64,000 nucleotides of DNA from Candidatus Thorarchaeota archaeon (GCA_019057475.1 DXJO01000006.1:64001-128000), one strand, 5' to 3'. Shown: positions 11,313 to 53,145, counted from the first letter of the stretch. A program made the numbers and translations. Notes: a model not told the origin generated them from the letters alone.

Positions 11313-11327
11313 ATGAGTTCTCAGCAC

Positions 11328-12767: not shown

Positions 12768-12879
12768 TCTAGAATCGGTGCCTCCTTAGAACTGGCACGA
12801 AGTTCATCAGCCTTTTAGGTTTGCGATTGGAGCTACATTGACTTGCTTCATATCGATGTCTTCATAATGCAATCGTCCA

Positions 12880-13404: not shown

Positions 13405-13461
13405 CCAGCTTGCCTGACTTGCTAATAACTCAACCAACGAAACCTTAGGCTGGGTGAAATT

Positions 13462-13863
13462 ATGAATGGAGAAAAAGATTTAGAAATCCTCCTGCGCTCC
13501 ATGCGTCCAAAGCTCTCCGAAATCCAGTTTGTTTTCTGTAACATCTTGCGGGACAAGCTCACCACTCTGAAGATGGAGCCGCTATTTGTATTCAGGGAAG
13601 AAGAAGGCGCTACAATCATCATTGAAAAACGGCAAGCAGATTCAGAATCCTTGGACTACGAGGATGTCTGGTCCTGGATTGCACTAACTGTTCACTCCAG
13701 CCTTTCTGCCATTGGTTTTCTCGCGGCCATCACAGCCAAGCTATCTGAAAATCGCATCAGTGTGAACGTTGTATCAGCTTACTTCCACGACCATCTCTTT
13801 GTGCCCCAAGAAAAGGCACGCTTGGCGATGCAGGTGTTGGATGACCTCCAGAGACGTAAATAA
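13462..13863 (+). CDS. ACT-domain protein (DUF2241/ACT_3-ACT_7 type)
   Basis: MNGEKDL..LL..M.P.L, FREEEG.T.I, LTVHSSL.AIG and SAYFHDHLFVP. Confidence 0.85.
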   Translation: MNGEKDLEILLRSMRPKLSEIQFVFCNILRDKLTTLKMEPLFVFREEEGATIIIEKRQADSESLDYEDVWSWIALTVHSSLSAIGFLAAITAKLSENRISVNVVSAYFHDHLFVPQEKARLAMQVLDDLQRRK

Positions 13864-13931
13864 CTAGGATTAGTAACACAGATATGCATAAAGAGCACAT
13901 TCAAGTTTGGGATTGAGGTGTTGGGTTCGTA

Positions 13932-14558
13932 TTGAGGCAAGGACGTTCGAGATTCATTCCATTCATAGTTCTTATTGTGATTCTTTTAGTCCCATGCTGC
14001 GCACAAGCTGGTGTTGCAGTGGACATCTGGCTCGATGAAGATGAACTCTACGAGATAGTCATTATGGCCAGCGTGGGTGATATAATCGCGGGGAACTACA
14101 CTGTTGTGGATGCGACCGGCAGTGCACCAATCATGCTGCTAGTTCTGGATTCCGAACACTTCTCGGATTGGGTGAATGGTTCAGTCTACGTGCCCCACGT
14201 ATACAGATATGGCATGTCGGGCGATTTTAGCTTTCCTGTCCCATATGCTGACACGTGGTATGTCGTGTTTTGGAATGATCCAGTCAATTCTGGAGCCAAA
14301 CATGTAGTCGGAAACGTTGACCACTTGATTGACGTTATAACAACCACAACCATCACAAACAGTCCCATTCCTATTGACATGGATGAGAGTCTTACGAGTC
14401 AGCTTTGGATTATCATTATTGGGGCACTAGGAGTGGTGGCGGCTGCGTTCATTGTGTTGATTTTGTTTATTCGACGGAGCGAGGACACAGAATACGTTTC
14501 GCGGTACGACCTGCCTAGGTCCGAAGGAGGCATCTTTCCATCGACAGACTCAGATTGA
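13932..14558 (+). CDS. type I membrane protein with GOLD/emp24-like beta domain
   Basis: Signal peptide, GNYTV...GDFSFPVP..DTWYVVFWN, Thr-rich stalk, C-terminal TM and short tail. Confidence 0.55.
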   Translation: MRQGRSRFIPFIVLIVILLVPCCAQAGVAVDIWLDEDELYEIVIMASVGDIIAGNYTVVDATGSAPIMLLVLDSEHFSDWVNGSVYVPHVYRYGMSGDFSFPVPYADTWYVVFWNDPVNSGAKHVVGNVDHLIDVITTTTITNSPIPIDMDESLTSQLWIIIIGALGVVAAAFIVLILFIRRSEDTEYVSRYDLPRSEGGIFPSTDSD

Positions 14559-15050
14559 AACGTCAGCTTTCTCAGCCCTCTTTCCACTTAAGTACTCAAT
14601 ATCGATTCTGCCGATGCCCAGTTTTTGAACTGCACTATCCTTGACCTTTGCTGCAATAACCTTTGAGGGATTATCTTCTAGGCACTCTATCATAACACGT
14701 AGTGCGTGTTTCTTTTCCACCAAGTCATCAATGAATGTGACTCTTCCCTTGAACTGAACGGCAGCGAAGATATGGTCACAGTCACCTTGGACATACCCTT
14801 TGTCAAGAAGAGCTTGACCCCAGACAACGCTGTTGGAATTCAGGATATCTATCTTCTTGCCCTCTTTAGCGCAGTGGAAGTAGATGCAATGGCGTTCTCG
14901 ATCGTAACCGTGGCTCAATGTGACAAGATATGGCTCGTTGTCTGAACACATAGCTATTGTCACGTATTGTACCGACTCGAGTATCTCAATCATCTCATTC
15001 CTATCAGTAATCGCCCTTTCTCTTCTTCTGATTTCTCGCAATAGATACAC
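14550..15050 (-). CDS. pyridoxamine 5'-phosphate oxidase-like (NimA family) flavin-binding protein
   Basis: IRRRERAI, PYLVTLSHGY, IYFHCAKEGKK.DIL, ending SGK. Confidence 0.82.
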   Translation of the reverse strand: MYLLREIRRRERAITDRNEMIEILESVQYVTIAMCSDNEPYLVTLSHGYDRERHCIYFHCAKEGKKIDILNSNSVVWGQALLDKGYVQGDCDHIFAAVQFKGRVTFIDDLVEKKHALRVMIECLEDNPSKVIAAKVKDSAVQKLGIGRIDIEYLSGKRAEKADVSI

Positions 15051-15188
15051 CCAGTACTAAGCTTGATTGAGGCCCTCGTAAGGTTCGAAGTGGTCATAAA
15101 GCTCGTGGCTATTACGCATGTGTGTCTTGCAGCTCCAAGTATTGCTCAGTTCGACGACATTCTGGTTTCAGTTGAATTGTCACACTGT

Positions 15189-15299
15189 TTATGGTGTGCG
15201 TGCTAGGTGAGCTTTATGCGGCAAAAAATAGTAAGCCACCGTCAATAGCAGCAAAGATTCCACAATCACGAACAGGGTTACAGTTTCCAAGAGCCACAT
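15189..15299 (-). CDS. putative 36-aa single-TM microprotein (not in ORF track)
   Basis: MWLLETVTLFVIVESLLLLTVAYYFLPHKAHLARTP*. Preceded by a promoter-like motif (15370-15389) duplicated in front of the next gene (15080-15102). Confidence 0.35.
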   Translation of the reverse strand: MWLLETVTLFVIVESLLLLTVAYYFLPHKAHLARTP

Positions 15300-15544
15300 T
15301 TCCTAGACCTTCCATGTAATAGTTGTCCCGAGTGTAGAAAAGGTCTGAGCATATGCATCATATGAAGTGAAGGTTGAAGTGGTTAAAGCATTTGCTGCAT
15401 ATACGGATTTGTACTAGCATTAGCAGCAAGAGTGGAAGTCTAGTTGGGTTTCTCCAATTCGGGCATCACTCAATCAGGATAAGCTTCATAATGCTGTTTC
15501 CGCGAAAAGCGAATACGACACGTTAACTGCTGAAGTGATACGCG

Positions 15545-16357
15545 ATGGATATTGGAGCATCTTTCTATGCGGGTTGTGAGATACCATTCGATCAGTTCCT
15601 TAGCATGTGTAGTAACCTAGGTATGAGCTATGTTGAGATTCAGACTGAACATCCCTACACACCTTCCGAGATGAACAGGAAACATGTCAATGAAGTCAGG
15701 GAACTTGCGAACACCTGCGGTCTCAACATCATCCTTCATGGCTCCCTGTTCGACACAAATCTGTCTAGCCTCAAGGAATGCATTAGAAGGGCATCAGTGA
15801 AGTTCATGCAGGAATGTGTTGAGCTAGCTAGCAAGTTAGGTGCCAATTTGCTAGTTGTACACGCCGGCTCATTTCCCGGAGACTTTCCAAATAATCTGAT
15901 GAATAAAGCCCGCGATCAACTCCATAGCAGTTTCTCTGAATTAACCAAGGTCGCTATGAACTCTGGAGTGACAATCGGCGTAGAAAATAAGCAAAAATCT
16001 GAAGATCGAGAACTGGTTCTGTATCCAGATGAACACCTTGAGGTTGTTGAGGCATTTCGTGATCAAGGGGCTAGGGCAGTTCTAGACATCGGGCATGCTC
16101 ACACTGCTAATAGCGACCTGGCGAACTATACACACCTACTTAATGACCTGAATATCGAGTTGCACCTTCATGATAACAACGGGATTTCTGACGACCATCT
16201 CCTTCTTGGTGGAGGAAGCATTGACTTCGAAAGCTTCTTTGAGGTAGTCAGAAGCATTGGTTTTACTGGCCCGGCGATTCTTGAGTTAAAGAATAGACCT
16301 GACCTAGAGTCCAGTATGGGATTCCTCCGTAAGAATGGTATCCCATGTACGCGATGA
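15545..16357 (+). CDS. sugar phosphate isomerase/epimerase (AP endonuclease 2 TIM barrel)
   Basis: VVHAG, GVEN, LDIGHA, HLHDNNG..DDH and ILE metal ligands. Confidence 0.85.
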   Translation: MDIGASFYAGCEIPFDQFLSMCSNLGMSYVEIQTEHPYTPSEMNRKHVNEVRELANTCGLNIILHGSLFDTNLSSLKECIRRASVKFMQECVELASKLGANLLVVHAGSFPGDFPNNLMNKARDQLHSSFSELTKVAMNSGVTIGVENKQKSEDRELVLYPDEHLEVVEAFRDQGARAVLDIGHAHTANSDLANYTHLLNDLNIELHLHDNNGISDDHLLLGGGSIDFESFFEVVRSIGFTGPAILELKNRPDLESSMGFLRKNGIPCTR

Positions 16358-38851: not shown

Positions 38852-39013
38852 GTCCTTTACCCCCCGTATTCATTATGTAACAAAGCGATATAAAGTTGAG
38901 CAAGCGTTTACCTGGGTCAATGCAGATTGTGTCTTCTTCTTGCTCGAGTTCGCGCGGACCCAACATATCACATAAGAGGCGCGAATACAACCGCGGAACC
39001 GGTGGAATACGTA

Positions 39014-40036
39014 ATGCCTACGTCCATTGAACTTGTCGAACAGGCAATGCAGAATGAGGAACCGCCACGCACTCCAGTTATTCCATTAGTCGGGCTGTAT
39101 TCGAGTGTATGCTCGGGATATCCTGTCAACGACCTTCTGAGGGACGGAAACCTACAGGCGAAGTCGCAGCTAGCTGCTCTTCAATGCTTCAAGTATGATG
39201 GTGTTTTCACTTGTATGGACCTTACTGTGGAAGCTGAGGCGCTGGGTGCATCTATCGCGTTTCCGCAAGGAGATTTTCCGTATGTTAGTGATCACCCAGC
39301 AGAATCGCCTTGTGCGGTTCTTGATTTAGAGATGGCATCAATAAAAGGTGCCCGCCTGTTGACATTTGTAAATGCGACAAAACAGCTTGTGAACTGTGTG
39401 GGGCGATCGCACTTGGTTAGCACTTACATAATTGGACCATTCACACTTGCAGGACACCTCATCGGTGTTGAAAGTCTACTCGAATACGCTATCGAGGACC
39501 CAGAGTTGACCAAGAAAGTAGTCAACTACTGTCAGGAGGTGCTTGAGCCTTTGGTAGAAGCGTATATCTCCGCAGGGGCACACAATGCTGTGATTTTGGA
39601 GCCAACAGCTAGTTCGAGCATAATCTCTCCGAAGTTCTTTGAGAAATACTCCGCGCCCGACCTCTCCAGAATGGTGTCGCGCATTCATAAAGGAGGAATA
39701 AAGGCAACCATCCACATATGCGGCAATACACATCCGATATTGCACGCAATGTGCGATACGAAAGCTGATGCTCTGAGCATTGACTCTGCTGTTGATCTGA
39801 AAGAGGCAAAAGAAATAGTCAAGGGGCGTGCGACTCTCATAGGCAATGTCGATACCACTCTCATTCTGACTGCATCCAAAGAAAATGTGCAAAAAGCGGC
39901 GGAAGATTGCCTTAAGAAGGCCGCCAAAGGAGGAAGTTTCTTTCTCTCAACCGGTTGCGACATACCCCTTGAAACTCCAAATCATAATGTACACGCGCTC
40001 GTTAATGCGGCTACCGGCAACTTGACTCAGCATTAG
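39014..40036 (+). CDS. MtaA/CmuA-type methylcobamide:thiol methyltransferase (UroD fold)
   Basis: DLTVEAEALG, GPFTLA, Zn motif HICG, GNVD and STGCDIP. Probable start at 39014. Confidence 0.82.
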   Translation: MPTSIELVEQAMQNEEPPRTPVIPLVGLYSSVCSGYPVNDLLRDGNLQAKSQLAALQCFKYDGVFTCMDLTVEAEALGASIAFPQGDFPYVSDHPAESPCAVLDLEMASIKGARLLTFVNATKQLVNCVGRSHLVSTYIIGPFTLAGHLIGVESLLEYAIEDPELTKKVVNYCQEVLEPLVEAYISAGAHNAVILEPTASSSIISPKFFEKYSAPDLSRMVSRIHKGGIKATIHICGNTHPILHAMCDTKADALSIDSAVDLKEAKEIVKGRATLIGNVDTTLILTASKENVQKAAEDCLKKAAKGGSFFLSTGCDIPLETPNHNVHALVNAATGNLTQH

Positions 40037-40200
40037 GTGCTCCAATCAGAAGGTGTGAGCGTACAGAATGTGTCAGCAGCAGGAAAAAGCACCCGAAGAG
40101 TTAAGGCAAGCGGTTGTCCATTGCTAGAAGCCATTGTATTGTTTCTAAGCTAGCCTGAATGCTGAAGATTATGCGCAAGGTAATAGGTGTGAAGAAGGAA

Positions 40201-41163
40201 ATGAACAACAAGAACAAGTGGAATGAGATATACGCTGTGGAACATCCACCTCTAGTCAGCTTTGGGGAGGGCGAACTGCTAACGATTTATGATAGTTCAA
40301 GCTTTGGAGTAGCGTCCAACCACACAACCTTGAAACGGGTCTTACTCCACCGACCTTGTGAAGATCTGGAAGCCGTCAAGAAGAATCCAGTATGGTGGCT
40401 TTGGGATGGCGTGCCGGACTTAAAGAAGTCTCGCAGTGAGTGGGACTCTTTTGCGGCTATTCTAGCGAAGAACGGGGTTGAGGTGGAATTACTTGAGAAG
40501 GGGTATCAAGGGTGTGCCAAGAGCTATTTCATGCGAGACCCCGCTACAATGACCCCATGGGGCGCCATCATAAGTCGAATGGCCCTCACCCAGCGATGGG
40601 GTGAGGAGCAGCACATCGCGAAGAAACTCTGGGAAATGCATATCCCCGTCCTAATGATGGTCACAGGCCATGGCATCTTCGAAGGAGGCAACTACATCCC
40701 ACTGGATGAGCACACAGTTATCCTCGGGCGTGGTATCAGGTCCAATGACATCGGAATTCGTCAAGTCCAGAATCTGCTTGAACTCATGGATCTAGAATCG
40801 ATTATCGTTGACATCCCTGCCTATCTGGAGCACTACGGTGGCTATGTTCACGTAGATGTATGCCTGAACCCGATTGACAAGGACTTGGCGCTGGTCTATC
40901 CCCCAGGTCTTCCGTATTGGTTTCTTGAAGATCTCAGAAACCGAGGGTTTGATATGATTGAGGTCGAGAGAGAGGAGGTCTTGCGCATGGGTACAAATGT
41001 ATTGCCTCTTGGAAAAAAGAAAGTCATCCTCCCTGCGGGGAATCCGACTGTCAAGAAGCGTCTTGAGGAAGTTGGAATGAAAATCATTGAAATTAGCATG
41101 AATGAGCTGATGAAGGGCGGCGGCGGACCCCGATGCATTACTATGGAGCTTCTACGAGCTTAG
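40201..41163 (+). CDS. amidinotransferase-superfamily enzyme (short arginine deiminase/DDAH-like)
   Basis: LKRVLLHRP, YFMRDP, FEGGN, HVD and catalytic Cys in GGGGPRCITM. Confidence 0.85.
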   Translation: MNNKNKWNEIYAVEHPPLVSFGEGELLTIYDSSSFGVASNHTTLKRVLLHRPCEDLEAVKKNPVWWLWDGVPDLKKSRSEWDSFAAILAKNGVEVELLEKGYQGCAKSYFMRDPATMTPWGAIISRMALTQRWGEEQHIAKKLWEMHIPVLMMVTGHGIFEGGNYIPLDEHTVILGRGIRSNDIGIRQVQNLLELMDLESIIVDIPAYLEHYGGYVHVDVCLNPIDKDLALVYPPGLPYWFLEDLRNRGFDMIEVEREEVLRMGTNVLPLGKKKVILPAGNPTVKKRLEEVGMKIIEISMNELMKGGGGPRCITMELLRA

Positions 41164-41179
41164 GGGGCGAACATGAGAT

Positions 41180-42142
41180 ATGAACACTCTACGACCTCTC
41201 AAGGGGAAAGACTTCCTCACGCTCATGGACTATTCGAAAGAGGAAATCTTAAGGATTCTTGATCTGGCTGACGAATTGAAAGATAGACTAGCAAAAGGAG
41301 CGCCACATGAGTGTCTCTCTGGCAAAACAATAGCCATGATTTTCGAGAAACACTCCACTCGCACGCGTCTATCATTTCAGGCTGGGGCCGCACACCTGGG
41401 GCTTTCTGCTTTCTATATGGATCCAACCACCATGCAACTATCTCGCGGAGAATCACTTTCTGACACGGCAAAGACAATCGACCGATATATCGACGCACTG
41501 GTCATCCGAACATTCGAACAAGAGATTGTTGAAGACTTCGCGAAGCATATGAAGAAACCAGTCATTAACGCGTTGACTAATGATACTCATCCGATGCAGC
41601 TTCTAGCGGATTTTCAGACGATACGTGAGAAGAAGAAACGTCTGCACGATTTGAAGATAGGATACATTGGAGATGCTTGGAATATGATCCACTCTTGGGG
41701 TATCATGAGCTCCATTATTGGATTGGACATGACTTACGCGGTCCCAGAAGGATACACAGTGAAGACAAAATACAGAGATTTTATCGACAGAACCAACAGG
41801 GAAACTGGTGGCAGCTTCACCGTCACCCACGATCTCAAACAGGCCATGACGGATGTTGACATAGTCGTGGGGATAACTTTCATCAGCATGACTCGTGCCG
41901 GAATGACGGAGGATGCGAAGGCGAAGAAACTCAAAGATTTCATGCCTTATCAAATCGATTCTGAGGTCATGGGGTGGGCTAAGAAAGATGCGATATACAT
42001 GCATTGCCTGCCCGCACATCGCGGAGAGGAGGTAACCGATGAGGTCCTTGATGGTCCTCAATCAGTCGTCTTCGACGAAGCAGAAAACAGAATGCATACC
42101 GAGAAAGCCGTGCTAGCCCTGCTACTCGGCGGGGTGGATTGA
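41180..42142 (+). CDS. ornithine carbamoyltransferase-like transcarbamylase with altered acceptor site
   Basis: STRT, HPMQ, HCLPAHRG and AENR are conserved. The DxxxSMG loop is replaced by ITFISMT. Confidence 0.85.
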   Translation: MNTLRPLKGKDFLTLMDYSKEEILRILDLADELKDRLAKGAPHECLSGKTIAMIFEKHSTRTRLSFQAGAAHLGLSAFYMDPTTMQLSRGESLSDTAKTIDRYIDALVIRTFEQEIVEDFAKHMKKPVINALTNDTHPMQLLADFQTIREKKKRLHDLKIGYIGDAWNMIHSWGIMSSIIGLDMTYAVPEGYTVKTKYRDFIDRTNRETGGSFTVTHDLKQAMTDVDIVVGITFISMTRAGMTEDAKAKKLKDFMPYQIDSEVMGWAKKDAIYMHCLPAHRGEEVTDEVLDGPQSVVFDEAENRMHTEKAVLALLLGGVD

Positions 42143-42165: not shown

Positions 42166-43305
42166 CTACTTGAGTATTTTAATCATCTCGTCCAATCGGG
42201 ACAATCCCGCATTTAGGTGGTCCTCCTCGTAACCGAAGCCGATTCTTAAATGCATGGGCATTCCGAAGTGTTCACCGGGGATGATTAGCAAGCTTTTCTC
42301 TCTTAACAGACGTGTGGTCAGTTCAAGTGAAGAAACATTCAGATTGTGTCTTGGAAAGCAGATTGAAGCAGCCCTTGGCGCAACGTATTCGAAGACTTCA
42401 TTTCGTTCGTCAAGCCACTCGCGTAGAATACTCCAATGTTTCTTAACAATCCTGCTGGTCCTTTCAAGTATCTTCCTTCGGCATTTTGGTTGCAATGCTA
42501 TTGTTGCAAGTGTATCACTCAGCTTTGTTGGACATATTGTCGTGTAATCTGAATACGCCCACAAGTCTGTCACGTTGATTTTATCCGAGCACATTATCCA
42601 ACCTAGCCTGAGACCGGGAAGTCCGTAAGCTTTTGACAGGCTATTCGTCACAATGACCTTGTCGTAATAGTCGAACATCGTAGGAGTCGAGTCTCCTTCG
42701 AGTTCAGCACCTTGATAGATCTCATCTGAGACCACCCAAAGGTGGGCATCCGCCGCAATCTCGGCAATCGCTTTCAAGTATGTCGGGCCAAAGGTTGCAC
42801 CTGTCGGGTTGTTCGGGTTACAGATGGCTATCGCCATGGTCTTCTTTGATATGGCTGATTTTAGTTCCTCAAGATCCGGAATCCATTCCCCTTTTTCAAT
42901 TTTAAGGCGAAACGGACTCACGACCCCATTGAGCCCTTTGATTATTCCTGGTATCTGCATATAGTTTGGAAGCATCACCACAATCTCTTTGGCATCGTGT
43001 TCATGAAGCAAGTTCCAGATAGTGAGGAAGTTTGCCTCTGCCCCTCCATTTGTGACTAGAACATTGTCCGCGTCTGCCCCTTGATACATGCCGCTAATCG
43101 CCTCCTTTAACGGCATTGTGCCATTGGTTTGTGAGTATGCCAGTTTCGTTTCGATGAGTTCTTTTTGAGCTTCTTTGTCAGGGATAAGATCCGATATCGT
43201 AAGTGGTTCAACGCCACTCTCTGTTAGATTTATGTCTATTACGTGCTCCCACTCTGACTGCATCCGTTCGAGCTCGAAAGGCTCCAATCTCATATCCAAC
43301 ACCAT
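42166..43305 (-). CDS. class I/II PLP aminotransferase
   Basis: NPNNPTG, DEIY, SLSKAYGLPGLRLGW. Confidence 0.88.
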   Translation of the reverse strand: MVLDMRLEPFELERMQSEWEHVIDINLTESGVEPLTISDLIPDKEAQKELIETKLAYSQTNGTMPLKEAISGMYQGADADNVLVTNGGAEANFLTIWNLLHEHDAKEIVVMLPNYMQIPGIIKGLNGVVSPFRLKIEKGEWIPDLEELKSAISKKTMAIAICNPNNPTGATFGPTYLKAIAEIAADAHLWVVSDEIYQGAELEGDSTPTMFDYYDKVIVTNSLSKAYGLPGLRLGWIMCSDKINVTDLWAYSDYTTICPTKLSDTLATIALQPKCRRKILERTSRIVKKHWSILREWLDERNEVFEYVAPRAASICFPRHNLNVSSLELTTRLLREKSLLIIPGEHFGMPMHLRIGFGYEEDHLNAGLSRLDEMIKILK

Positions 43306-43349: not shown

Positions 43350-44615
43350 CTACTGCAAATATCCCAGTCCTTCAATTATTATGTCGATGGCCTTATCGAT
43401 GTTTTCGTAGGTCTGAGCAAAGGATACTCGAAGAAAGCTTTCTCCTCCCGGCCCGAACCAAGCTCCTGAAACTGTCAGAACCTTAGTCGCAACAATGAGA
43501 TAGAACATTGTGACCAATGAACCCGACCTGTTTAGGTCTTCAATACTGAACAAGTGCTGAGGAAGAGATTCCAAGAAAGCTCTTCCTTTGGTTTTCAGAA
43601 ATGCCTTCATATCATCGTGATGTTTCTCTATCAATTCTCTTGCGTTGACAAACATGTAAAAGGTGCCTTGGGGACTTATAGTACTAAGAAGAGGGATTTC
43701 TTTGTTAATCCTGTTTACAAGAAGCTTCCTTCGTCTGTCATATTCCGCCAACATTGTCTTGACTGGTTCATCAGGTCCGGTGAGCGCAGCGAGTGCCGCT
43801 GCCTGCGAAGTTGTGGGCGCACAGATTGAGCTGTACTGATGGATCTTGCTGAACCCTGTGATGATTTCTTTCGGTGCTATGAGCCAGCCGAGCCTAAAGC
43901 CTGTCATTGCATGACTCTTCGAAAGGCCATTGATTGTGATAGTGCGCTCAAACATGCCGTTAATCGCTGCAGGGCTATGGACCCTTGCTCCATCATATAC
44001 CAGCTGCTCGTACAGTTCATCCGACAGGATAAGAAAGTCATGATCAGTGGCAAGGTCCGCCACCGCTGAAACTTTGTTCCTGTCCCATACTGCTCCGGTG
44101 GGATTGGTTGGTGAGCATACTATAATCATCTTAGTCTTTGGCGTGATTGCTTCTGCAAGTTTTTCCAGTGCGGGTACAAACTGGTCCTCTTCAGTAGCAG
44201 GAACAAAAACGGGTTTGCCTCCTGCAATTCGCACAATCGATTCATATGCGAAATATGAAGGGCTGGGAATAATTACTTCATCGCCTTCGCCCACGGTGGC
44301 AAGGATTGCGCCAAACACGCCGGGGCTAGTGCCCGCTGTGACGATGACTTCACTTTCGGGGTCAACCGTGAAACCGTTGTCGCGCTTTGTTTTATCAGCA
44401 ATCGCTTTCCTTAGTTCTAATGTCCCAGCGTCTGGCGAGTAATGGGTGTTTCCTGACTGTAGAGACCTCATTGCCGCTTCTATGATATGCTTCGGTGTGT
44501 TGAAGTTTGGTTCTCCAATGCCCAGATTCAGCAGTTTGTGATGCTCACCGATATGAAGCAGTAGGCCGATTCTACCAGGGGGCAGTGTTTCCAGATTCTG
44601 CGTTATCTTACCCAA
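43350..44615 (-). CDS. class I PLP aminotransferase (AspC-like) with C-terminal insertion
   Basis: GIGEP, SPTNPTG, DELY, GLSKSHAMTGFRLGW and RVSFA. Confidence 0.88.
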   Translation of the reverse strand: MGKITQNLETLPPGRIGLLLHIGEHHKLLNLGIGEPNFNTPKHIIEAAMRSLQSGNTHYSPDAGTLELRKAIADKTKRDNGFTVDPESEVIVTAGTSPGVFGAILATVGEGDEVIIPSPSYFAYESIVRIAGGKPVFVPATEEDQFVPALEKLAEAITPKTKMIIVCSPTNPTGAVWDRNKVSAVADLATDHDFLILSDELYEQLVYDGARVHSPAAINGMFERTITINGLSKSHAMTGFRLGWLIAPKEIITGFSKIHQYSSICAPTTSQAAALAALTGPDEPVKTMLAEYDRRRKLLVNRINKEIPLLSTISPQGTFYMFVNARELIEKHHDDMKAFLKTKGRAFLESLPQHLFSIEDLNRSGSLVTMFYLIVATKVLTVSGAWFGPGGESFLRVSFAQTYENIDKAIDIIIEGLGYLQ

Positions 44616-44634: not shown

Positions 44635-45357
44635 TCATAGTCCCAAGAGATTGGCCACAAACTCAGGAAAATCGAGCATTTTAAGGTCACTGCCAGCATG
44701 CTCTACCCTTTCTCTCAGATTGAACGTGCAGAATGGACAAGCTGTGGTCAATATCGTCGCCTCGGTTTCCTCAGCCTCTTGTATTCGAATCGCTGCCGCT
44801 TCGCGTGCCATCTCACGGTTCGTTGAGCGTACACCACCCCCAGCACCGCAACAGGAAGCATTTTTCCCGCTCTTGTGCATCTCCCTCAGTTCAACATTCG
44901 GGATTGCCTGCATGACTTCTCGCGGGTCGTCGTAGATGCCCATATGTCTTCCAACGTGGCAGGGGTCATGATATGTAACTGTGATTGGTTCACCTTTGAG
45001 GAATTCAATTCTGCCATCTTCAATGAGTTCTTTGAGCAGAGTTGGAAAATGGATGACCTCAAACGGGAGCTCTTCTCCTAGGATTGATGGATAATCAACT
45101 GAAATCGTTCTGAAGCAACCTGCGCAAGCTGTGACCACTCCAGTTGCTCCTGCGGCTTTTAGTACGTCCACATTGTGCCGAGCCATGTACTTGGCTTCAT
45201 CAACGTAACCTGTTCTAAGGGCAACGCTACCGCAGCACCATTCATCTTCTCCAAGAATCTTGAAGTCTACGTTTGCATGTTTGAGAACCTTGATTGTTGA
45301 TTCAGCTATGTTTGGAAGACGATATGTTGCCATACATCCAGCGAAATACACTAGCAT
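44635..45357 (-). CDS. CCG-domain Fe-S protein (GlcF/HdrD C-terminal part)
   Basis: FAGC, EWCCG, TACAGC, YHDPC, SCCGAGGG and TACPFC. Confidence 0.88.
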   Translation of the reverse strand: MLVYFAGCMATYRLPNIAESTIKVLKHANVDFKILGEDEWCCGSVALRTGYVDEAKYMARHNVDVLKAAGATGVVTACAGCFRTISVDYPSILGEELPFEVIHFPTLLKELIEDGRIEFLKGEPITVTYHDPCHVGRHMGIYDDPREVMQAIPNVELREMHKSGKNASCCGAGGGVRSTNREMAREAAAIRIQEAEETEATILTTACPFCTFNLRERVEHAGSDLKMLDFPEFVANLLGL

Positions 45358-45359
45358 AA

Positions 45360-45752
45360 CTATGCCTCCGCAAGTTCCTTCAACCTGTTTCTGGCCTTTG
45401 GATCTTCACCAAAAGGGTTGTGTGTTTTCTGCATATTCTTGACTAACTGAGCAGATACTTCGTTACCAAGGCCCCTCTTCACGAGCTCAGCGCGCGCAGC
45501 TTCGACAACTGCTGGGATGTCAAGACCGGATAGGCAAGTTGCCTGGCAATTCTTACAGGTTGTGCATTCATACATCCTCTCAGCAACTTCATCCCAGTTC
45601 AGCCATCCTTCCAGCAAAGCAAACAGAATTGTCATCTTGCCTTTCGCACTGTTTGATTCCAAGTTTGTCTGCTTGTAAATGGGGCAATTGGATTGGCATA
45701 GCCCGCAACTGACGCATTCCATGATAATATGTAGGTGTTCCTTCAATGGCAT
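45360..45752 (-). CDS. 2x[4Fe-4S] protein (GlcF N-terminal part)
   Basis: CVSCGLCQSNCP and CTTCKNCQATC; HNPFG. Confidence 0.85.
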   Translation of the reverse strand: MPLKEHLHIIMECVSCGLCQSNCPIYKQTNLESNSAKGKMTILFALLEGWLNWDEVAERMYECTTCKNCQATCLSGLDIPAVVEAARAELVKRGLGNEVSAQLVKNMQKTHNPFGEDPKARNRLKELAEA

Positions 45753-45758
45753 TGCTTT

Positions 45759-47216
45759 CTACTCCGCCATCTCTTCATCAGTCACGTATTCCTTGTAGAT
45801 GAACCCAACATCCGAATCACGTTCCTCAGTGTCCAGCGCCATCTTGCCTGGATTAAGAATTCCATTGGGGTCTAGCAATTTCTTGATTCTTCTATCGAGC
45901 TCGAGTTTGTCTTGGCCAATAGCCATCCGAACATAGGGATTCTTGACATAGCCGAATCCGTGCTCCGCTGTAACCACGCCGCCTATGCCCACGACATATT
46001 CTAGAATTTCCTGTTCGGCCTTCTTCATCGCGACCCAATGTTCTCTATTCCTTGCATCAATTAGGACTGCAGGATGAATTATCCCAATTCCCGCATGGCA
46101 GAAGACGGCGGCAATGATGCCATGAGACCGGATTATCCGACCGATCTCCCTGATCGCTTCAGCTTGTTTAGACAGTGGAACACAAGGATCTGCCGCGGCA
46201 AAACCGAACTCTCTGTATCCGGGATGCACCTTCACTATTGCTGTGTCTATCTCCAATCTTGGAGCCCAGAGTTTGTTGGTTGTTTCTTCATCCCGTGCTA
46301 TGACGACATTCTCGCCGCCATGCTCCTTGAGGATTCTCTCCATCACCATCAGCTTGCGCTGAAGATTCTCTTCATCGAAGCCTTGGACATCTCCAACGAA
46401 GTTGCCCTCACAAGTTGGGAATCCGAGATTCATGACATCACTGATTGTTTTCACGGTTTTGCCATCGGTCGCCTCAAAGGTTCCCGCATCAATTCCCGAC
46501 ATAGTGATCGCCAAAGAAGCATTCATCAGCCCATCAAGATTCTGGAAGAAGGCACCGATGGTTGCCTCAACTGGCATTCTAGGTACAAGTTTCAGGGTTG
46601 CTTCGGTGATTATTCCCAGGGTACCCTCAGACCCAGCGAAGAGTGCAGCTAGGTTGTATCCCATGTTGTAGCGAGGTGCTCTTGTTCCCAGTCTAAGGAT
46701 TGTCCCATCAACCAAAACTACTTCCATACCTTGAATCCAAGCTCCAACTCGACCATGCTTGTAGGCATGGTGACCGTTTGAGTCCGAGGCGAGGATTCCA
46801 CCGATGGTCGCGGCGTTATGACTTCCGACGTCATGAGGAAAGGTCAGTCCTCTTCTCTCCAGCTCGTGTTCGAATGTTTCGTATCTGACTCCAGGCTGAA
46901 CAATGGCAATCATGTCTTCGTTGCTAATCTCAAGGATCTTGTTCATGCGACTCAGGTCGAGAAGTATTCCTCCTCTAACGGCAAGCGACGACCCCTGAAA
47001 TGATGCACCGCCGCCTCGGGGCGTGACTGGTACTCCCTTTTCATTGAGCAGAATAAGTATCTCCACGACTTGCTCAGTAGTTGTTGGATAGACCACCGCA
47101 TCGGGAATTGAGAAATACGGTGTGAGGTCCCGAGAATAAGCAACTCGATCGACCTTGGCCGTTATAACATTATTTTCGCCAACGATTTGCCTAAGCTGTT
47201 CAATTGTATCTGACAC
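45759..47216 (-). CDS. FAD-linked oxidoreductase, GlcD/D-2-hydroxyacid dehydrogenase family
   Basis: TPRGGGAS, ATIGG, GSEGTLGIITEA, AEHGFG and DPNGILNPGK. Confidence 0.88.
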   Translation of the reverse strand: MSDTIEQLRQIVGENNVITAKVDRVAYSRDLTPYFSIPDAVVYPTTTEQVVEILILLNEKGVPVTPRGGGASFQGSSLAVRGGILLDLSRMNKILEISNEDMIAIVQPGVRYETFEHELERRGLTFPHDVGSHNAATIGGILASDSNGHHAYKHGRVGAWIQGMEVVLVDGTILRLGTRAPRYNMGYNLAALFAGSEGTLGIITEATLKLVPRMPVEATIGAFFQNLDGLMNASLAITMSGIDAGTFEATDGKTVKTISDVMNLGFPTCEGNFVGDVQGFDEENLQRKLMVMERILKEHGGENVVIARDEETTNKLWAPRLEIDTAIVKVHPGYREFGFAAADPCVPLSKQAEAIREIGRIIRSHGIIAAVFCHAGIGIIHPAVLIDARNREHWVAMKKAEQEILEYVVGIGGVVTAEHGFGYVKNPYVRMAIGQDKLELDRRIKKLLDPNGILNPGKMALDTEERDSDVGFIYKEYVTDEEMAE

Positions 47217-47232: not shown

Positions 47233-48327
47233 CTACCGTTTGACTCTCTTTTTCTTCTTCGTAATCCTACGGATAAGCTTGTAGATGATAAAGAGAATTA
47301 GCAAGAGTCCAACAATAGCGCCATAACCAAGCAGTAAATTCTGGTTCAAGAACCCTCCAGTCCAGTCCAAAACCGGCAGACCCAACAAGAACTGGTTGAG
47401 ATCCTGTAGAATAACGTCTAGACCGATTGTGACGAGGAAGCTACTCACAATGGTCAGCATCGTCGATACGATAATCGAGAGAGATACCCAAGTGATTGAT
47501 GTGGGCTCAAAGTACATCAAATACATCATAAAGCTGAAGAACCCAACAACAATAATTGTGCCCACGTAGTCTCTCGCCTTGAACGAGAGATCCTCGACAT
47601 TGGTCCGGTCTTCACGAGCTCCAAATGCTCTTGCATTGATGGCCACCTCAAGGTCCATTGCGCGGCGAAACATCAGAAGAAGGAGTGGCGTTATGATGGG
47701 GACGTACGCTCTCCTGAGCTTCTGATACATGTTGGCAGCATCAATGTCAAACCCCCTGATTTTTTGAGCCTCTATGATAGCGTCCATGCTTTCCTGAACC
47801 AGAGGGACAAACCTCATAGCTGTGATGAACATGAAAATAATTTTCTGAGGAACGCGTATCTTCGCAAGTGCACCGCTAATCTTGGTCATTGGGGAAGTCA
47901 TTGTGAAGATGGGTACGACAGTGACTACAGCAATGACCCGGAGCATAACAAGCAGACCATACATTATTCCGCCGATTGTTATCTCACCATAATTGACCAT
48001 AACATTTCCATGCTCGTCGGGCCAGGGCAAATCAAACAGCTGCAGGATTACTGTGCTATCGCCAAACCTGTAGGTTAGTCCTTGCACCAAGAACAGAAAC
48101 ACGAAGAGCATACTCAACAGCTTTAGCAGGAACCCCAGGCTGCTAAGCTCGATTTTTCCAACAAGCCACCATAGAGAGGCGAACGATATCCAAATTAGGA
48201 GTATGCTGATATGCTCGATGCTCGTGCATTGGACAACTAAGATGAGCGCCAAAAACATAAGGAGCAGCTTCACAAGAGGACTCATTCTATCCAGAGGTGT
48301 GTCCTTTTTGACGTACTCGAACGCCAT
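47233..48327 (-). CDS. ecfT: ECF transporter T component
   Basis: RFVP...AQKIRG and ARAF motifs; C-terminal TM extension. Confidence 0.87.
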   Translation of the reverse strand: MAFEYVKKDTPLDRMSPLVKLLLMFLALILVVQCTSIEHISILLIWISFASLWWLVGKIELSSLGFLLKLLSMLFVFLFLVQGLTYRFGDSTVILQLFDLPWPDEHGNVMVNYGEITIGGIMYGLLVMLRVIAVVTVVPIFTMTSPMTKISGALAKIRVPQKIIFMFITAMRFVPLVQESMDAIIEAQKIRGFDIDAANMYQKLRRAYVPIITPLLLLMFRRAMDLEVAINARAFGAREDRTNVEDLSFKARDYVGTIIVVGFFSFMMYLMYFEPTSITWVSLSIIVSTMLTIVSSFLVTIGLDVILQDLNQFLLGLPVLDWTGGFLNQNLLLGYGAIVGLLLILFIIYKLIRRITKKKKRVKR

Positions 48328-48329
48328 GC

Positions 48330-50081
48330 CTAGGCACCTCCTGCCTTGAAACAGGCAAGCATTTCATCGACAGTCACCAAGTTCTTTTCTATGCCGTAGC
48401 CTTCAAGCTTCTGAGAGAGCTGTATGATTTGAGGAGGCTTTAGAAATGCCTTATCCATGACCTCATGCATACTGAAGACTTCACGCTTTGGACCATCAGC
48501 GATAATTATCCCCTCGACCATAACAACGAGCCGATCTGCATACTGAGCAACAAGGTCCATATCGTGCGAGATCATGACGATTGTCTTTCCCTTCTCTCGC
48601 ATGCGTGTGGCAATTTGACACAGTGCGTGACGCCCTTGGTAATCCTGTGCAGTAGTTGGTTCATCCAGAATCAAGATATCAGGATCCATTGCAATCCCAG
48701 CTGCAGCTGCTACCTTCCGGCGGTCGCCAAAGCTCAATCTGAATGGAAAGATGTCCCGCATATCCTCCAGACCCGCTTCTTTCAAACTCTCTTCCACTCG
48801 CCGGGCTATTTCGTCCTCAGGGAGGCCCAAATTCCTCAAACCGAACTCGAGCTCCTTCTCTACACTTATGCAAAAGAGCTGGTAGTCAGGATTCTGCAAT
48901 ATCAATGCAATGCTCTTTGCAATGCTGCCCGTGGTTAATTCCGATACATCTTCACCCTCGACCTTTGTCACTCCTTCGGTGGCCTCTAGAAGTCCCAGAA
49001 AATGTTTTACCAGGGTTGTTTTGCCGCTCCCATTCTGGCCAACAATCGCCACAATCTCACCTCGCTTGATTTTGAGATTAATACCCCTGAGGGCAGTTAC
49101 TGGTATTCTTGCCGGATATACGAAAGTAACATTCTCAACTTCAAGCACAGTTTCGTCAGACATCGGTGGCGCAGGAAGCGGTTCCGTCCATTCCACTTGG
49201 AAAAATCCTTCGTCCAATAGTTCCTTGAGCATAGAGTAGGACTCGTCCAGGGTCAGCGGTAAGCCCCCGATCCGCTCTAATCTCTCTTGGAACCCTGGAA
49301 TTTTCTTGGCCATCTTGGCGGCGAGTACGGTTACCGCAGGCGGGTTTACACCAACACTATCTAACAGCTCAGTCTGTGCAAAGACATCCTTTGGGGTACC
49401 TAAGGCCATGACACGACCATCACTTAGAACTAGAACTTTTGACGCCAGTCTGGCAATCTCGTCTGTCTTATGACTGGTGATGAGAATCGTCATGTCTTCT
49501 GTGTTTGCCAGCTGCTTTATGACATCGAATACCTCAGTTGTGCCGATTGGGTCCAGCTGGCTTGTTGGCTCATCTAGAATTAAGACCTCCGGGAGCATCG
49601 TAAGTCCCGCAGCTAATGCAACTCGCTGTTTCTGGCCGCCACTCAACTCTTTGGGCTTTCGTTCTTCAAGGCCGTCAATACCACAGACTTTGGCCGCCCA
49701 AGCTGCACGCCGAAGTATCTCATCCCGTTCGACTGCAAGATTCGCCGGACCAAAGAATAACTCTGAAGCAACATTCGTAGTTGTGAACTGAGACTCTGGA
49801 TCTTGGAGAACCATCGATACTTTGCTTGCGAGCTGAATAATGGGTGTTTCCCACGGATCCAGACCACAAAGGCTGATCGACCCCTTTTCGACTCCGGTGT
49901 AGACCGTGGGAATTATCCCATTCAGATGGAAACATAGTGTTGTTTTCCCCGCACCATTCGCTCCGAGAATTCCAAGTATCTCGCCCTTCTTGACTTCGAA
50001 ACTAACTTCATGCAAAGCAAGAGGACCACGCTCATAGGTGAAAGTGACATTATTCACTTTTGCTGTCGAGTATTCAGTCAT
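48330..50081 (-). CDS. ecfA: ECF transporter fused double ATPase
   Basis: Two Walker A motifs (GANGAGKTT, GQNGSGKTT), QDPESQ/QNPDYQ Q-helices, LSGGQ/LSFGD. Probable start at 50081. Confidence 0.9.
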   Translation of the reverse strand: MTEYSTAKVNNVTFTYERGPLALHEVSFEVKKGEILGILGANGAGKTTLCFHLNGIIPTVYTGVEKGSISLCGLDPWETPIIQLASKVSMVLQDPESQFTTTNVASELFFGPANLAVERDEILRRAAWAAKVCGIDGLEERKPKELSGGQKQRVALAAGLTMLPEVLILDEPTSQLDPIGTTEVFDVIKQLANTEDMTILITSHKTDEIARLASKVLVLSDGRVMALGTPKDVFAQTELLDSVGVNPPAVTVLAAKMAKKIPGFQERLERIGGLPLTLDESYSMLKELLDEGFFQVEWTEPLPAPPMSDETVLEVENVTFVYPARIPVTALRGINLKIKRGEIVAIVGQNGSGKTTLVKHFLGLLEATEGVTKVEGEDVSELTTGSIAKSIALILQNPDYQLFCISVEKELEFGLRNLGLPEDEIARRVEESLKEAGLEDMRDIFPFRLSFGDRRKVAAAAGIAMDPDILILDEPTTAQDYQGRHALCQIATRMREKGKTIVMISHDMDLVAQYADRLVVMVEGIIIADGPKREVFSMHEVMDKAFLKPPQIIQLSQKLEGYGIEKNLVTVDEMLACFKAGGA

Positions 50082-50240
50082 TATCGCAGGCTCCACCAGA
50101 TAATCGCGCATTCCTTCTATAAGATATATCTCTTCCTTTGCAAATGTCTGTCAAAGGCAATCAGTCACTCTATTCGACTTACCAACGATGTATGCAAATC
50201 AGGAGCATGAAGTTGGCTTATGACCTCAGCTGATAAGGGC

Positions 50241-50280
50241 AAGAAAAGAAAATATGGCACTGGCCAGAAAAGGCCAGTGC
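50241..50280 (-). terminator. perfect 9-bp hairpin plus U-tract after the ECF S gene
   Basis: GCACTGGCC-agaaaa-GGCCAGTGC followed on the minus strand by TTTTCTTTTCTT. Confidence 0.7.
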
Positions 50281-50293
50281 TCGTTGTTTCGCA

Positions 50294-51076
50294 TCACCAA
50301 ATGGCATCTGGAATACGGGGCAAGCCGCTTCTCTTAAGCGCCTCTACAATCGGTATTGCGATGATGGTCGTAAGGATGGCTAGCACAGGCCACCACACAG
50401 TGTAGCCTATGTTCGTCCCGGTCGCAAGTGCCATTGGATATGTAAAGATGTACCAGTACGGCGCTGCCCACCAGTAATAGAACGCCATGAAACCCATTAG
50501 AAACACGAGGAAGACGCCAAGATACTGCATTTTGGGATCATCCCCTCGGCACCATTCTGGAATCAGTTTCCTACCTATTGGCGTAAGCGTTATGATTAGC
50601 CACGGAAGCCAGAAGACAGGTGTTGTCGCAAAAAACGTAAGAGTCGCAGGTTCCCCAGGTATTGTGGGCCAGACATATGGGAAGACAATGAACATCACTC
50701 CCGTGATAACTAGGGCGACAACTGTCAATATCCAAGCAATGATCTTGTTTGTGTTGACAAACAAAGCGGTAAACACCGCAGGCATTATTCCTGTGAGCAG
50801 CACATCCAAAAGGCCTAATGGGAACATGGCAGGACTCACGAACATGCCAATAATCCCTCCGATAATTGCGGCTATTATCCCGCCAATCGGGCCAAGTATA
50901 AGCGGACCGATGGCAGTGAACACAACTGATAGAGGTACAAAACCTCCACCTCCGAAGTATGGGAATATCGGGACCAGGGCAAGTGCGCCGTTTATCGCAC
51001 CGTAGACTGCAATAAAGGCAATATTGGCTCCTCCGTATCCCATCGGGGCTCTCTCTCTCGTTCGTTCTTCTGTCAC
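50294..51076 (-). CDS. ECF transporter substrate-specific S component
   Basis: NIAFIAVYGA...PIFP...LILGPIGGIIAAIIG. GTG start at 51076 behind GGAGG; upstream of ecfA/ecfT. Confidence 0.8.
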   Translation of the reverse strand: MTEERTRERAPMGYGGANIAFIAVYGAINGALALVPIFPYFGGGGFVPLSVVFTAIGPLILGPIGGIIAAIIGGIIGMFVSPAMFPLGLLDVLLTGIMPAVFTALFVNTNKIIAWILTVVALVITGVMFIVFPYVWPTIPGEPATLTFFATTPVFWLPWLIITLTPIGRKLIPEWCRGDDPKMQYLGVFLVFLMGFMAFYYWWAAPYWYIFTYPMALATGTNIGYTVWWPVLAILTTIIAIPIVEALKRSGLPRIPDAIW

Positions 51077-51470
51077 GCGAATTTCCTCCCAGTAGGTTAT
51101 TAGCCTACTAGTAAAAACGATACTCATAAAGCTGAACCGACTTATATCAGTTGGCTAATCGCGAGCCAATAATACAGCAGCATTGTTCAGTTACGAATAG
51201 AAGCATTCTGCTTAACTGACGCTCGTTTTCTGGCTAGTTCACGGCATACAGACAGGTTGAGCTAGCGAATGGTCATTAAGGTCCTATTGGCATTCAAAGC
51301 TGCGTTTTCAACCATTGTTTTGCAGTGTGCCCCATTCTTTCTAATTTATGACAGGAAAAGGGCCTCAGGTTCGAAAAGCACGACTCGGAATGTTCAAATC
51401 GTGGAATCGATGAAGTAGTTCCCATTGTTACCTACGATTTAATGCGGCCATTCTCCTATGGTGAAACAAT

Positions 51471-52121
51471 ATGGGAACCAAAAAAATCCTTGAGATTCTC
51501 AAGCAAACCATTATTGATGGAAACCGAAAGGCCACTCCTGCGCTCGCGCAGAAGGCAATTGATATGGAAGTCCCCCCCTATACCATTGTGACAGATGCAT
51601 GCTCACCGGCAATGGCTGAGGTTGGAGAGCTCTATCAGCAAGGTGAGTACTTCGTCCCTGAGATTCTAATGTCAGCCAAGGCATTTGAGTCTGCAATGGC
51701 CATTATTGAACCACTTCTCAAGAGCAAGAAGTTGGAGCTCGCTGGCACCGTAGTCCTTGGAGTCTGCGAGGGTGACATACACTCAATCGGAAAGAACTTG
51801 GTTGCCACCATGTTGGAGGCGGGCGGGTTCAACGTCATCGACTTGGGTACAGATGTACCCGCGAAGAAGTTCATCGCAACCGCCATCAAGAGCAACGCTG
51901 ACATTATTGGGGTTTCTGCTCTGATGACCACATCGATGATTGGTATGAAAGACATCGTACATATGGTGAAAGAAGAAGGACTGGGCGTGAAAGTCATGGT
52001 GGGTGGAGGACCAGTCAACCAAGAGTACGCAGATTCGATTGGGGCAAATGCATACGGTCGGGATGCGATGGATGCCGTAAGAGTGGCGAGGAATCTCATG
52101 GAAGACATAAGGGGGTCGTAA
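51471..52121 (+). CDS. methyltransferase cognate corrinoid protein (MtbC/MttC-like)
   Basis: Cap domain (GEYFVPEIL) and DIHSIGKNLV B12 motif; SALMTT and VGGGP. Confidence 0.92.
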   Translation: MGTKKILEILKQTIIDGNRKATPALAQKAIDMEVPPYTIVTDACSPAMAEVGELYQQGEYFVPEILMSAKAFESAMAIIEPLLKSKKLELAGTVVLGVCEGDIHSIGKNLVATMLEAGGFNVIDLGTDVPAKKFIATAIKSNADIIGVSALMTTSMIGMKDIVHMVKEEGLGVKVMVGGGPVNQEYADSIGANAYGRDAMDAVRVARNLMEDIRGS

Positions 52122-52125
52122 GTCT

Positions 52126-53145
52126 ATGCAATCTGGCAAGGAACTCATTGACACTGCTTTGTATGGCGGCATTCCCGAGAGGATTCCAGTATCCATAGTA
52201 TCAACAGCTTGGATCTTCAATAACTACGGCCAGGACTTGGCATTGGTTGATCGCGACGGAGAGCAGATGGCAAAATCCTGGCTCGCGTTCAATAGGGACT
52301 TCGGAGCGGACTCCGTGTGCCCAATGCTTAGCCCTATGCTTATCCCCGAATATTATGGATCTGAACTGAGAATACCGCAAGGCGGTTTTCCGCTTCTCGT
52401 CAAGCCGGCAATTCAGGAGCCAGCGGATCTTGACAAACTTGAAGCGTTTGATCCAGCTGGAGCGCCTCGAGTTGCGGCCGCTGTCGATTGTGTGAAAAGA
52501 CTAGTCAAGGAGATAGGTTCGACCACATTCATCTGGTTGGTGTGCATAGGGCCCATTTCAACCCTCTCCCGCCTAATGGACACTCAGCTAATCATGGAGT
52601 GTCTTGTGGAGGACCCCGGGTTTATTGAGCGTGCTTTCGAGTTCAGCGTTGAGGTTTTCAAAACAACAATGGAGCCTCTCATTGAAAGCGGCGTAGATGC
52701 AATTGATTTTTCTGACCCCGTCGCGTCTCCTGATATGGTTTCGCCACGAATGTACAAACGATTCTTCTGGAAACATGACAGAGAGGTCGCGAAATGGATT
52801 CAATCCAAAGGTGTTCATGCCATCTACCACATCTGTGGAGATGTACTTAGAATAATCGAGGAGATGCAAAACACAACAGCAAGGGGGTTGAGTGTTGACG
52901 CGCCATTAGACCTTGCACAGGCAAGAGATAGGGTTCCTGACGCAACACTGATTGGAAATGTGGACCCAGCTAACATCATCATGAATGGCACACCCGCTAC
53001 AGTGACAGCCGCTTGCGAGGCGGCAATGATACAGGGTGGATCTAATGGTAGGTTCATCTTGGCTCCAGGCTGCGATGTGCCGCCAACATCTCCATCTCGG
53101 AATATCGATGCGATGATTCGTGCAGCCAGGCAATTCAGACACTAA
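52126..53145 (+). CDS. MtaA/CmuA-type methyltransferase (UroD fold)
   Basis: HICG, GNVDP and APGCD; directly downstream of the corrinoid gene. Confidence 0.82.
   Translation: MQSGKELIDTALYGGIPERIPVSIVSTAWIFNNYGQDLALVDRDGEQMAKSWLAFNRDFGADSVCPMLSPMLIPEYYGSELRIPQGGFPLLVKPAIQEPADLDKLEAFDPAGAPRVAAAVDCVKRLVKEIGSTTFIWLVCIGPISTLSRLMDTQLIMECLVEDPGFIERAFEFSVEVFKTTMEPLIESGVDAIDFSDPVASPDMVSPRMYKRFFWKHDREVAKWIQSKGVHAIYHICGDVLRIIEEMQNTTARGLSVDAPLDLAQARDRVPDATLIGNVDPANIIMNGTPATVTAACEAAMIQGGSNGRFILAPGCDVPPTSPSRNIDAMIRAARQFRH

Follow-up and report, generated by a model that had tools for sequence, protein, structure and literature searches.

To our knowledge, arginine and agmatine are the only guanidino compounds from which substrate-level ATP formation is known. 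In both pathways, ArcA-ArcB-ArcC-ArcD and AguA-AguB/PTCase-AguC-AguD, a guanidino hydrolase acts first, a phosphorolytic transcarbamylation follows, and a carbamate kinase is available. The ornithine transcarbamylases (OTC; ArgF/ArgI/ArcB, EC 2.1.3.3) are set apart from their relatives by the motif DxxxSMG, and they bind ornithine through D231, S235, M236, N167 and K53 (PMC4581275; E. coli numbering). The non-OTC members of the OTC branch known as DPTCase and DBTCase are biosynthetic (PMC4581275). On the hydrolase side, an Asn of arginine deiminase (ADI; Asn155 in M. arginini, Asn198 in M. penetrans) contacts the amino/carboxylate end of the substrate (PMC3474736), and Asp73 of human DDAH1 binds the alpha-amino group (PMC10958460). 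Our search of the literature returned no description of the transcarbamylase clade presented here, or of a pathway that joins a short deiminase to an OTC-like enzyme.

Here we present an analysis of a window of 64,000 nucleotides from a Candidatus Thorarchaeota archaeon (GCA_019057475.1, DXJO01000006.1:64001-128000), in which a gene that passes for OTC lacks the ornithine-binding Asp. Judging from the sequence, this gene probably encodes a catabolic non-ornithine transcarbamylase, the second step of a two-gene module whose first step is the deiminase-like gene directly upstream. The features of the locus are as follows.

39014..40036, + strand: MtaA/CmuA-family (URO-D fold) Zn methyltransferase-like gene, upstream of and co-directional with the pair
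40159..41163, + strand: ADI/DDAH-fold guanidino-group hydrolase (deiminase-like), 334 aa, with Cys326, His231, Glu175, Asp127, Arg146 and Arg194 kept, and with Lys121
41180..42142, + strand: OTC-fold transcarbamylase (TC), 320 aa, of a Thorarchaeia subclade of the non-Asp 'KWN' group, with W167, I232, F234, S236-M237 and R239
41669..41686, + strand: GDAWNM of the TC, residues 164-169, with Trp167 at the E. coli N166 position and Asn168 at N167, the latter kept
41858..41902, + strand: altered and lengthened SMG (240's) loop of the TC, residues 227-241, with Ile232 for Asp and an invariant Arg239 gained
42166..43305, - strand: PLP enzyme, convergent with the TC, from the PRK07324 group; its relatives include the arginine-derivative enzymes GntC, VioD and OrfR
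43350..44615, - strand: class I aminotransferase, closest to the Pyrococcus aspartate/aromatic aminotransferases
44635-45357 and 45360-45752, - strand: split GlcF-like Fe-S/CCG subunit
45759-47216, - strand: GlcD-like FAD 2-hydroxyacid dehydrogenase
47233..51127, - strand: ECF-type transporter, made up of a T component, a fused double ATPase and a 277-aa membrane protein
51471..53145, + strand: corrinoid protein (216 aa) and second MtaA-like methyltransferase (339 aa)

The TC carries both domains of its family (OTCace_N and OTCace in Pfam), and the nearest solved structure is that of Pyrococcus furiosus OTC (1PVV/1A1S; sequence match, E 1e-88), with which it shares the unknotted OTC fold, an identical carbamoyl-phosphate site, the HCLP motif and a similar length. 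Residues were mapped by aligning the TC to this protein and to E. coli ArgI. The motifs lie at 55-62 (FEKHSTRT), 137-140 (HPMQ), 164-169 (GDAWNM), 227-241 (DIVVGITFISMTRAG) and 275-278 (HCLP). Every signature by which the transcarbamylase superfamily binds carbamoyl phosphate is present, namely SxRT, HPxQ, HxLP, the beta4 Arg and the C-terminal Arg, and within the clade STRT (59-62), R110, HPMQ, HCLP and ENR(M)H (302-306) are invariant. The initial annotation had called STRT, HPMQ and HCLP intact, and they are, at the positions it gave. An AlphaFold model of the clade member P0015 (pLDDT 80, below 50 in the decisive loop) has the OTC fold with a TM of 0.89, and at the level of prediction it confirms that fold for the clade.

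The acceptor site is altered. In the alignments to ArgI and P. furiosus OTC, E. coli D231 falls on Ile232, N166 on Trp167 and W233 on Phe234, so that the replacement of the ornithine-binding Asp by Ile, already read from the bare sequence in the initial annotation, is upheld. The DxxxSMG of OTC is therefore missing, whereas the Lys of FxKxSxRT (K53), Asn168 (N167) and Ser236-Met237 (S235-M236) are retained, which leaves four of the five ornithine contacts in place. The same annotation had read SMG as changed to SMT; the loop is indeed changed, but not by a plain swap of Gly for Thr, since MAFFT places a three-residue insertion, T-R-A, after S-M, and P. furiosus OTC takes a four-residue gap just past its SMG loop when aligned to the TC. 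The loop is thus 3-4 residues longer than that of OTC and bears the invariant Arg239. GDAWNM had likewise been read as a replacement of GDGxNN; there the first Asn has become Trp, but the second, ornithine-contacting Asn is kept, and the register of that earlier reading was slightly off.

Curated models take this protein for an OTC. It scores 362 against TIGR00658 (cut-off 280.85) and 374 against NF001986 (cut-off 306), and public records name close relatives, for example in Thorarchaeota SMTZ1-83, 'ornithine carbamoyltransferase', just as had been foreseen in the expectation that automated annotation would call the gene argF. Because the TC passes these equivalog cut-offs, the models do not discriminate the Thorarchaeia clade; and with the cut-offs passed and four of five contacts retained, residual or even full OTC activity is possible.

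The TC also differs from each of the described non-OTC types. The knotted transcarbamylases (AOTCase, SOTCase, YgeW) combine a proline-rich loop with an extended 120's loop and exceed the cut-offs of their family HMMs; the TC, at 320 aa, has OTC-like architecture, and it scores 148 against NF003384 (cut-off 288) and 85-92 against the ygeW models (cut-offs 453-500). With DPTCase and DBTCase it shares the replacement of the DxxxSMG Asp and an Arg in the 240's loop, proposed in those enzymes to bind a carboxylate, but their own motifs, HDLP and (T/S)RWQ(T/S)(T/M)G, are represented in the TC by HCLP and by G-I-T-F-I-S-M-T-R. Putrescine transcarbamylase (PTC) deserves closer comparison, as a known OTC-branch enzyme that lost DxxxSMG and whose structures are good fold matches to the P0015 model (TM 0.87). 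On this basis the TC might act on a decarboxylated amine, of the agmatine/N-carbamoylputrescine type, and the ADI-fold protein might be an alternative agmatine deiminase. We consider this highly improbable: PTC is marked by Gln in FxQxSxRT, a (Y/W)(G/W)(V/L/I)x loop, a C-terminal extension of ~20 aa and a TIGR04384 score above cut-off, whereas the TC has Lys at that position, keeps S-M, lacks the extension and scores 281 against a TIGR04384 cut-off of 500, and its partner retains both carboxylate-binding Arg residues.

That partner is closely tied to the TC. The stop codon of the deiminase-like gene lies 16 nt before the TC start, and each of the six related loci with sequence on that side has an orthologue immediately upstream of the TC. 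In two genomes of another genus than that of the window genome the gene is tandemly duplicated at this place (G059:C1:880713-882702 and G069:C6:2025-4017), the copies being 70-73% identical to the window copy. Orthologues at identities of at least 67% occur only in the same eight genomes as the variant TC, plus one fragment in genome G055. A second, distinct ADI/DDAH-like family, 33-37% identical to the window deiminase and about 320-350 aa long, is present in about 19 Thorarchaeia genomes (G043, G058-G080) and absent from the host genome.

Profile searches place the deiminase nearest to ADI (E 1e-28), nitroimidazole nitrohydrolase and P. aeruginosa DDAH (PaDDAH; E 1e-22), and a search of the ESM Atlas returned only the ADI/DDAH family name. 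Within that fold it keeps the residues that define the guanidino-group-modifying superfamily: Cys326, His231 and Glu175 align with the catalytic triad, Asp127 with the guanidinium clamp, and Arg146 and Arg194 with the two carboxylate-binding Arg residues of DDAH/ADI, and all six are invariant across the alignments. Unlike the hydrolases of the arginine and agmatine pathways, it is only ~330 aa long, lacks the helical domain of ADI (ADI residues ~74-156 find no counterpart) and falls outside the agmatine deiminase (PF04371) family; its score of 90 against TIGR01078 (arcA) compares with a cut-off of 489, and it lies far under the DDAH cut-off too. The Asn contact of ADI is also missing. At its place is Lys121, three positions before a conserved Phe, which aligns with ADI Asn155/Asn198 and with PaDDAH Asp60, the equivalent of human DDAH1 Asp73 by a constant offset of +13. 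These correspondences come from alignments at 25-35% identity, anchored by the gap-free motif F-x-R-D.

The initial annotation had allowed that the TC substitution might be unique to this assembly, but it recurs widely. At least 16 protein clusters (90%-identity clusters of the homologue list), 60-100% identical to the window TC, share the altered site; all 16 carry [GSA]-[IV]-T-F-x-S-M-x-R and GDxWNM, so that DxxxSMG has given way to I/V-T-F-x-S-M-x-R and the Asp is missing from every one. The D231 column holds Ile or Val in 16/16 clade clusters and in 8/8 clade members of our tree, and Asp in 67/67 canonical OTC representatives of the same tree, a difference far beyond chance. In a library of 50%-identity representatives the clade is a single representative at 525 bits, and the next match scores 323 bits. 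Orthologues of the variant TC occur in 8 of 87 Thorarchaeia genomes and 4 of 17 genera (8 of the 400 phylum genomes), and they are absent from the other 313 Asgard genomes searched. The most divergent members, P0013-P0016, are about 60% identical to the window TC; a deiminase homologue labelled Thermoplasmatota (P0286, 46% identical to the window deiminase) hints at that phylum as their source. A scan of genome contigs found two clade members only, and a scan of metagenomes with the generic patterns FEKHSTRT and MHCLP found ordinary or sister TCs and no member of the clade.

Patchy distribution and accessory status might suggest an inactive or decaying paralogue. Against this, not one catalytic residue varies over the 60-100% identity range, and every genome has an uninterrupted reading frame. 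The residues specific to the clade do not vary either, a sign of selection; we give decay hardly any credence.

The host genome (3.34 Mb, 96% complete) also encodes a canonical OTC on contig 21, with D-T-F-F-S-M-G and FMKSSTRT, one ATCase and two tandem knotted-type transcarbamylases. The latter, on contig 3 (L003/L004), are paralogues of 350 and 379 aa with SLRT/SVRT phosphate motifs as in knotted AOTCase/SOTCase; one has HCLPCDRG and the other no recognisable HxLP. The canonical OTC is a core gene of the class, found in 83 of 87 genomes, in 24/24 high-quality ones and in all eight carriers of the variant. Unlike ArgF, ArgI or ArcB, then, the window TC is an accessory paralogue beside a canonical OTC, and its companion in the operon is a non-ADI deiminase, not one of the arginine genes.

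It could nevertheless be a divergent but genuine catabolic OTC, with other residues, or atoms of the backbone, making up for the missing Asp; the pair would then form a compact arginine deiminase pathway that takes L-arginine through citrulline to ornithine and carbamoyl phosphate. The OTC cut-offs passed, the retention of K53, N167, S235 and M236, the ranking of ADIs as the best profile matches of the deiminase and the carbamate kinase in the genome all speak for such an enzyme. We nonetheless regard it as unlikely, given that the alpha-amino ligand has been lost independently in both enzymes (to Ile/Val in the TC, to Lys in the deiminase), that the Asp is kept in all 67 canonical representatives, that the deiminase falls so far short of the arcA cut-off (90 bits against 489) and lacks the ADI helical domain, and that no ArcD-type antiporter is present. 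The carbamate kinase (arcC) itself does not discriminate, because it is near-universal in the class (70 of 87 genomes); it is present in 8/8 carriers and is unlinked to the pair in the host genome, a further departure from the arginine and agmatine pathways.

The phylogenetic position of the TC was obtained from an IQ-TREE tree of 97 sequences rooted on the host genome's own ATCase. The TC does not fall among the canonical OTCs: the Thorarchaeia clade (SH-aLRT 99) is nested in a group of 26 non-Asp sequences (SH-aLRT 100), which is sister to the 67 Asp-bearing OTCs (SH-aLRT 95). Across the 26, position 231 is Asn in 16 and Ile, Val, Leu or Thr in the remainder, never Asp, and position 166 is Trp in nearly all. 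The non-Asp group is large, making up the majority of the top 120 homologues, with sources in Bathyarchaeia, Bacillota and others, and its members (Bathyarchaeia, Bacillota, Enterococcus) are annotated as ornithine carbamoyltransferase. Our clade's nearest relatives (~55% identity) are the 'KWN / NxxxSMG' OTC-like proteins, which have in common with it the Trp at N166, the loss of Asp231, Met120 and, in bacterial members, a neighbouring short deiminase homologous to that of the window. They differ in having mostly Asn at D231, an SMG loop of normal length and HCLPGYRG, against Ile/Val, the TF-x-SM-x-R loop and HCLPA(H/R)RG in the Thorarchaeia clade; the bacterial sister deiminases have Tyr at the Lys121 position, and the Thorarchaeia enzyme has in addition an N-terminal extension of ~40 aa.

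In Enterococcus sp. PF1-24 (L026, NZ_JARXWL010000029.1, 9989-16192), a sister TC of the G-N-T-W-H-S-M-G type opens a complete operon that continues, in this order, with an APC permease, a 284-aa ADI/DDAH-like deiminase, a carbamate kinase and a PucR-like regulator. This is the same four-gene layout as aguBDAC, and because it mirrors the agmatine operon it supports a catabolic, ATP-yielding role for the wider group. A contig of a Bacillota MAG (L025, 523-6024) holds a sister-type TC and a short deiminase, after which come a CN-hydrolase resembling N-carbamoylputrescine amidase, an NCS1 permease and a nitrilase-like gene, a layout that looks like a hydrolytic alternative beside the phosphorolytic route. 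On a JGI metagenome contig (L103, 3876-9200), a Bathyarchaeia-like TC of the A-N-T-F-H-S-M-G type stands beside DUF1846, an MFS transporter and a class III aminotransferase, and no deiminase is found next to it within that interval. Pairing with a deiminase is therefore not universal in the wider non-Asp group; DUF1846 may stand in for the deiminase, or this subgroup may have another role.

The island around the pair recurs between genera with its gene order shuffled. The MtaA-like gene has a homologue upstream on the same strand in four of the loci compared, and many paralogues of ~50% identity occur in the genomes, which makes its distribution uninformative. The first 29 residues of the ORF as listed, from a TTG at 38927, resemble read-through, and translation probably begins at the ATG at 39014 (MPTSIELV...). 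H-I-C-G, with G-C-D-[IV]-P further along, matches the pattern of Zn ligands in MtaA/MtsA-type enzymes and is kept in both MtaA-like proteins of the window, and the corrinoid gene with the second of them lies beside the pair in three other genera-level loci. A PRK07324-group PLP enzyme adjoins the TC in five loci, one copy being partial. In G059 the GntC-like PLP gene by an OCD-family gene appears truncated, with only residues 157-379 matched. The class I aminotransferase is in the island in five loci compared, a class III (omega) aminotransferase is directly upstream of the deiminase in three other loci, and an OCD/mu-crystallin-family enzyme is downstream of the TC in two loci. At the window locus an ECF transporter takes the place held by the antiporter in the arginine and agmatine systems. 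Its 277-aa membrane protein (50294-51127, - strand) has no Pfam or NCBIfam match, is kept in the island in three other loci, and can be presumed to act as a novel S (substrate-capture) component; its ligand, once known, would reveal the substrate of the island.

By their sequence families the neighbours (aminotransferases, class III omega-aminotransferase, OCD-family enzyme, transporter) appear catabolic, and none of those in the loci compared is an arginine-biosynthesis gene. This bears on whether the TC might instead work anabolically, carbamoylating an unusual amine to a ureido metabolite beside an ADI-fold protein that is an amidinotransferase or unrelated. Precedent exists, in that the known non-OTC members of the OTC branch, DPTCase and DBTCase, are biosynthetic (PMC4581275), and the ADI fold includes amidinotransferases, which give weak matches to the deiminase (E 1e-7). 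However, NRPS, PKS or other biosynthetic scaffold genes are found in none of the seven loci, the neighbours are transporters, aminotransferases and dehydrogenases, the sister operon has a carbamate kinase, and the HDLP of DPTCase/DBTCase is absent from the TC, so we hold an anabolic role to be improbable.

We return to the catabolic non-ornithine transcarbamylase. The sequences show directly the altered features and how well these are conserved, as well as the gene linkage, the paralogy and the place in the tree; the direction of the reaction, what stands at the alpha position and the link to carbamate kinase are inferred. A guanidino, arginine-like acid would be imported, and the deiminase would hydrolyse its guanidino group to give a ureido acid. 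With phosphate, the TC would then split the ureido compound into carbamoyl phosphate and a free omega-amine; the unlinked carbamate kinase would make ATP from the former, and the latter may be handled by the neighbouring aminotransferases, dehydrogenase or OCD-family enzyme. That the acceptor lacks a free alpha-amino group was proposed in the initial annotation, and it gains support here from the fixation of Ile/Val for Asp in a clade whose genomes keep a canonical OTC. It is supported further by the deiminase, which lost its alpha-amino ligand independently. The strongest argument is that two unrelated, successive enzymes have each lost the alpha-amino ligand and kept their carboxylate ligands, which points to an arginine-like acid without a free alpha-ammonium.

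Each enzyme has, moreover, acquired a cationic side chain (Lys121 of the deiminase, Arg239 of the TC). The substrate is thus most likely an arginine-like carboxylate that has no free alpha-ammonium and may bear an oxygen or anionic function at that position. Candidates are the 2-oxo and 2-hydroxy analogues 2-ketoarginine and argininic acid, arginine with a substituent on N-alpha, and des-amino guanidino acids. Provided that the main reading is right, a 2-oxo or 2-hydroxy substituent comes first, at well short of an even chance, and would fit the PLP enzymes, the GlcD-like dehydrogenase and the OCD-family reductase. Two options share the next rank: an N-acyl or N-carboxyalkyl substituent, which would fit the gained Lys and Arg and the class III aminotransferase, and a des-amino compound (5-guanidinovalerate/4-guanidinobutyrate type), which would fit the hydrophobic Ile/Val and the same aminotransferase. 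Some other alpha substituent is the least probable of the four. The co-located corrinoid and MtaA-like genes count against the main reading, having no role in the proposed pathway. They suggest a methylated guanidino substrate (creatine, methylarginines, alpha-N-methyl or betaine forms), which we disfavour because the residues that the two enzymes acquired at the alpha position are cationic, and because of the chemistry of MtaA-type Zn enzymes, which act on thiols, thioethers or ethers and not on N-methyl groups.

More tentatively, Thorarchaeia and a larger set of bacteria and archaea with the sister 'KWN' enzymes may run a third deiminase-type ATP-yielding pathway, on an alpha-keto or alpha-hydroxy arginine analogue, by the steps outlined above; we rate this as a possibility well below the non-ornithine assignment itself. 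The analogue would be made by the adjacent GntC/OrfR-like PLP enzyme or GlcD-like dehydrogenase and then fermented. Were it the 2-oxo compound, the product 5-amino-2-oxopentanoate would cyclise spontaneously to pyrroline-2-carboxylate, which would pull the otherwise unfavourable phosphorolysis forward, and the OCD/mu-crystallin-family reductase that adjoins the TC in two loci could carry out the last step, to proline.

These results expose a systematic annotation error in the OTC equivalog models: since curated models accept proteins without DxxxSMG, metabolic reconstructions will assign argF or arcB too often. That two unrelated folds, working as a pair, have both lost the alpha-amino ligand offers a clear, testable specificity rule, and the cultured Enterococcus sp. 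PF1-24 is a tractable model for the uncharacterised sister family. If our reading is true, a pair for a third, alpha-amino-less substrate would give sediment Asgard archaea a new source of energy and nitrogen, and by extension to the sister group this would hold for Bathyarchaeia, Bacillota and enterococci as well.
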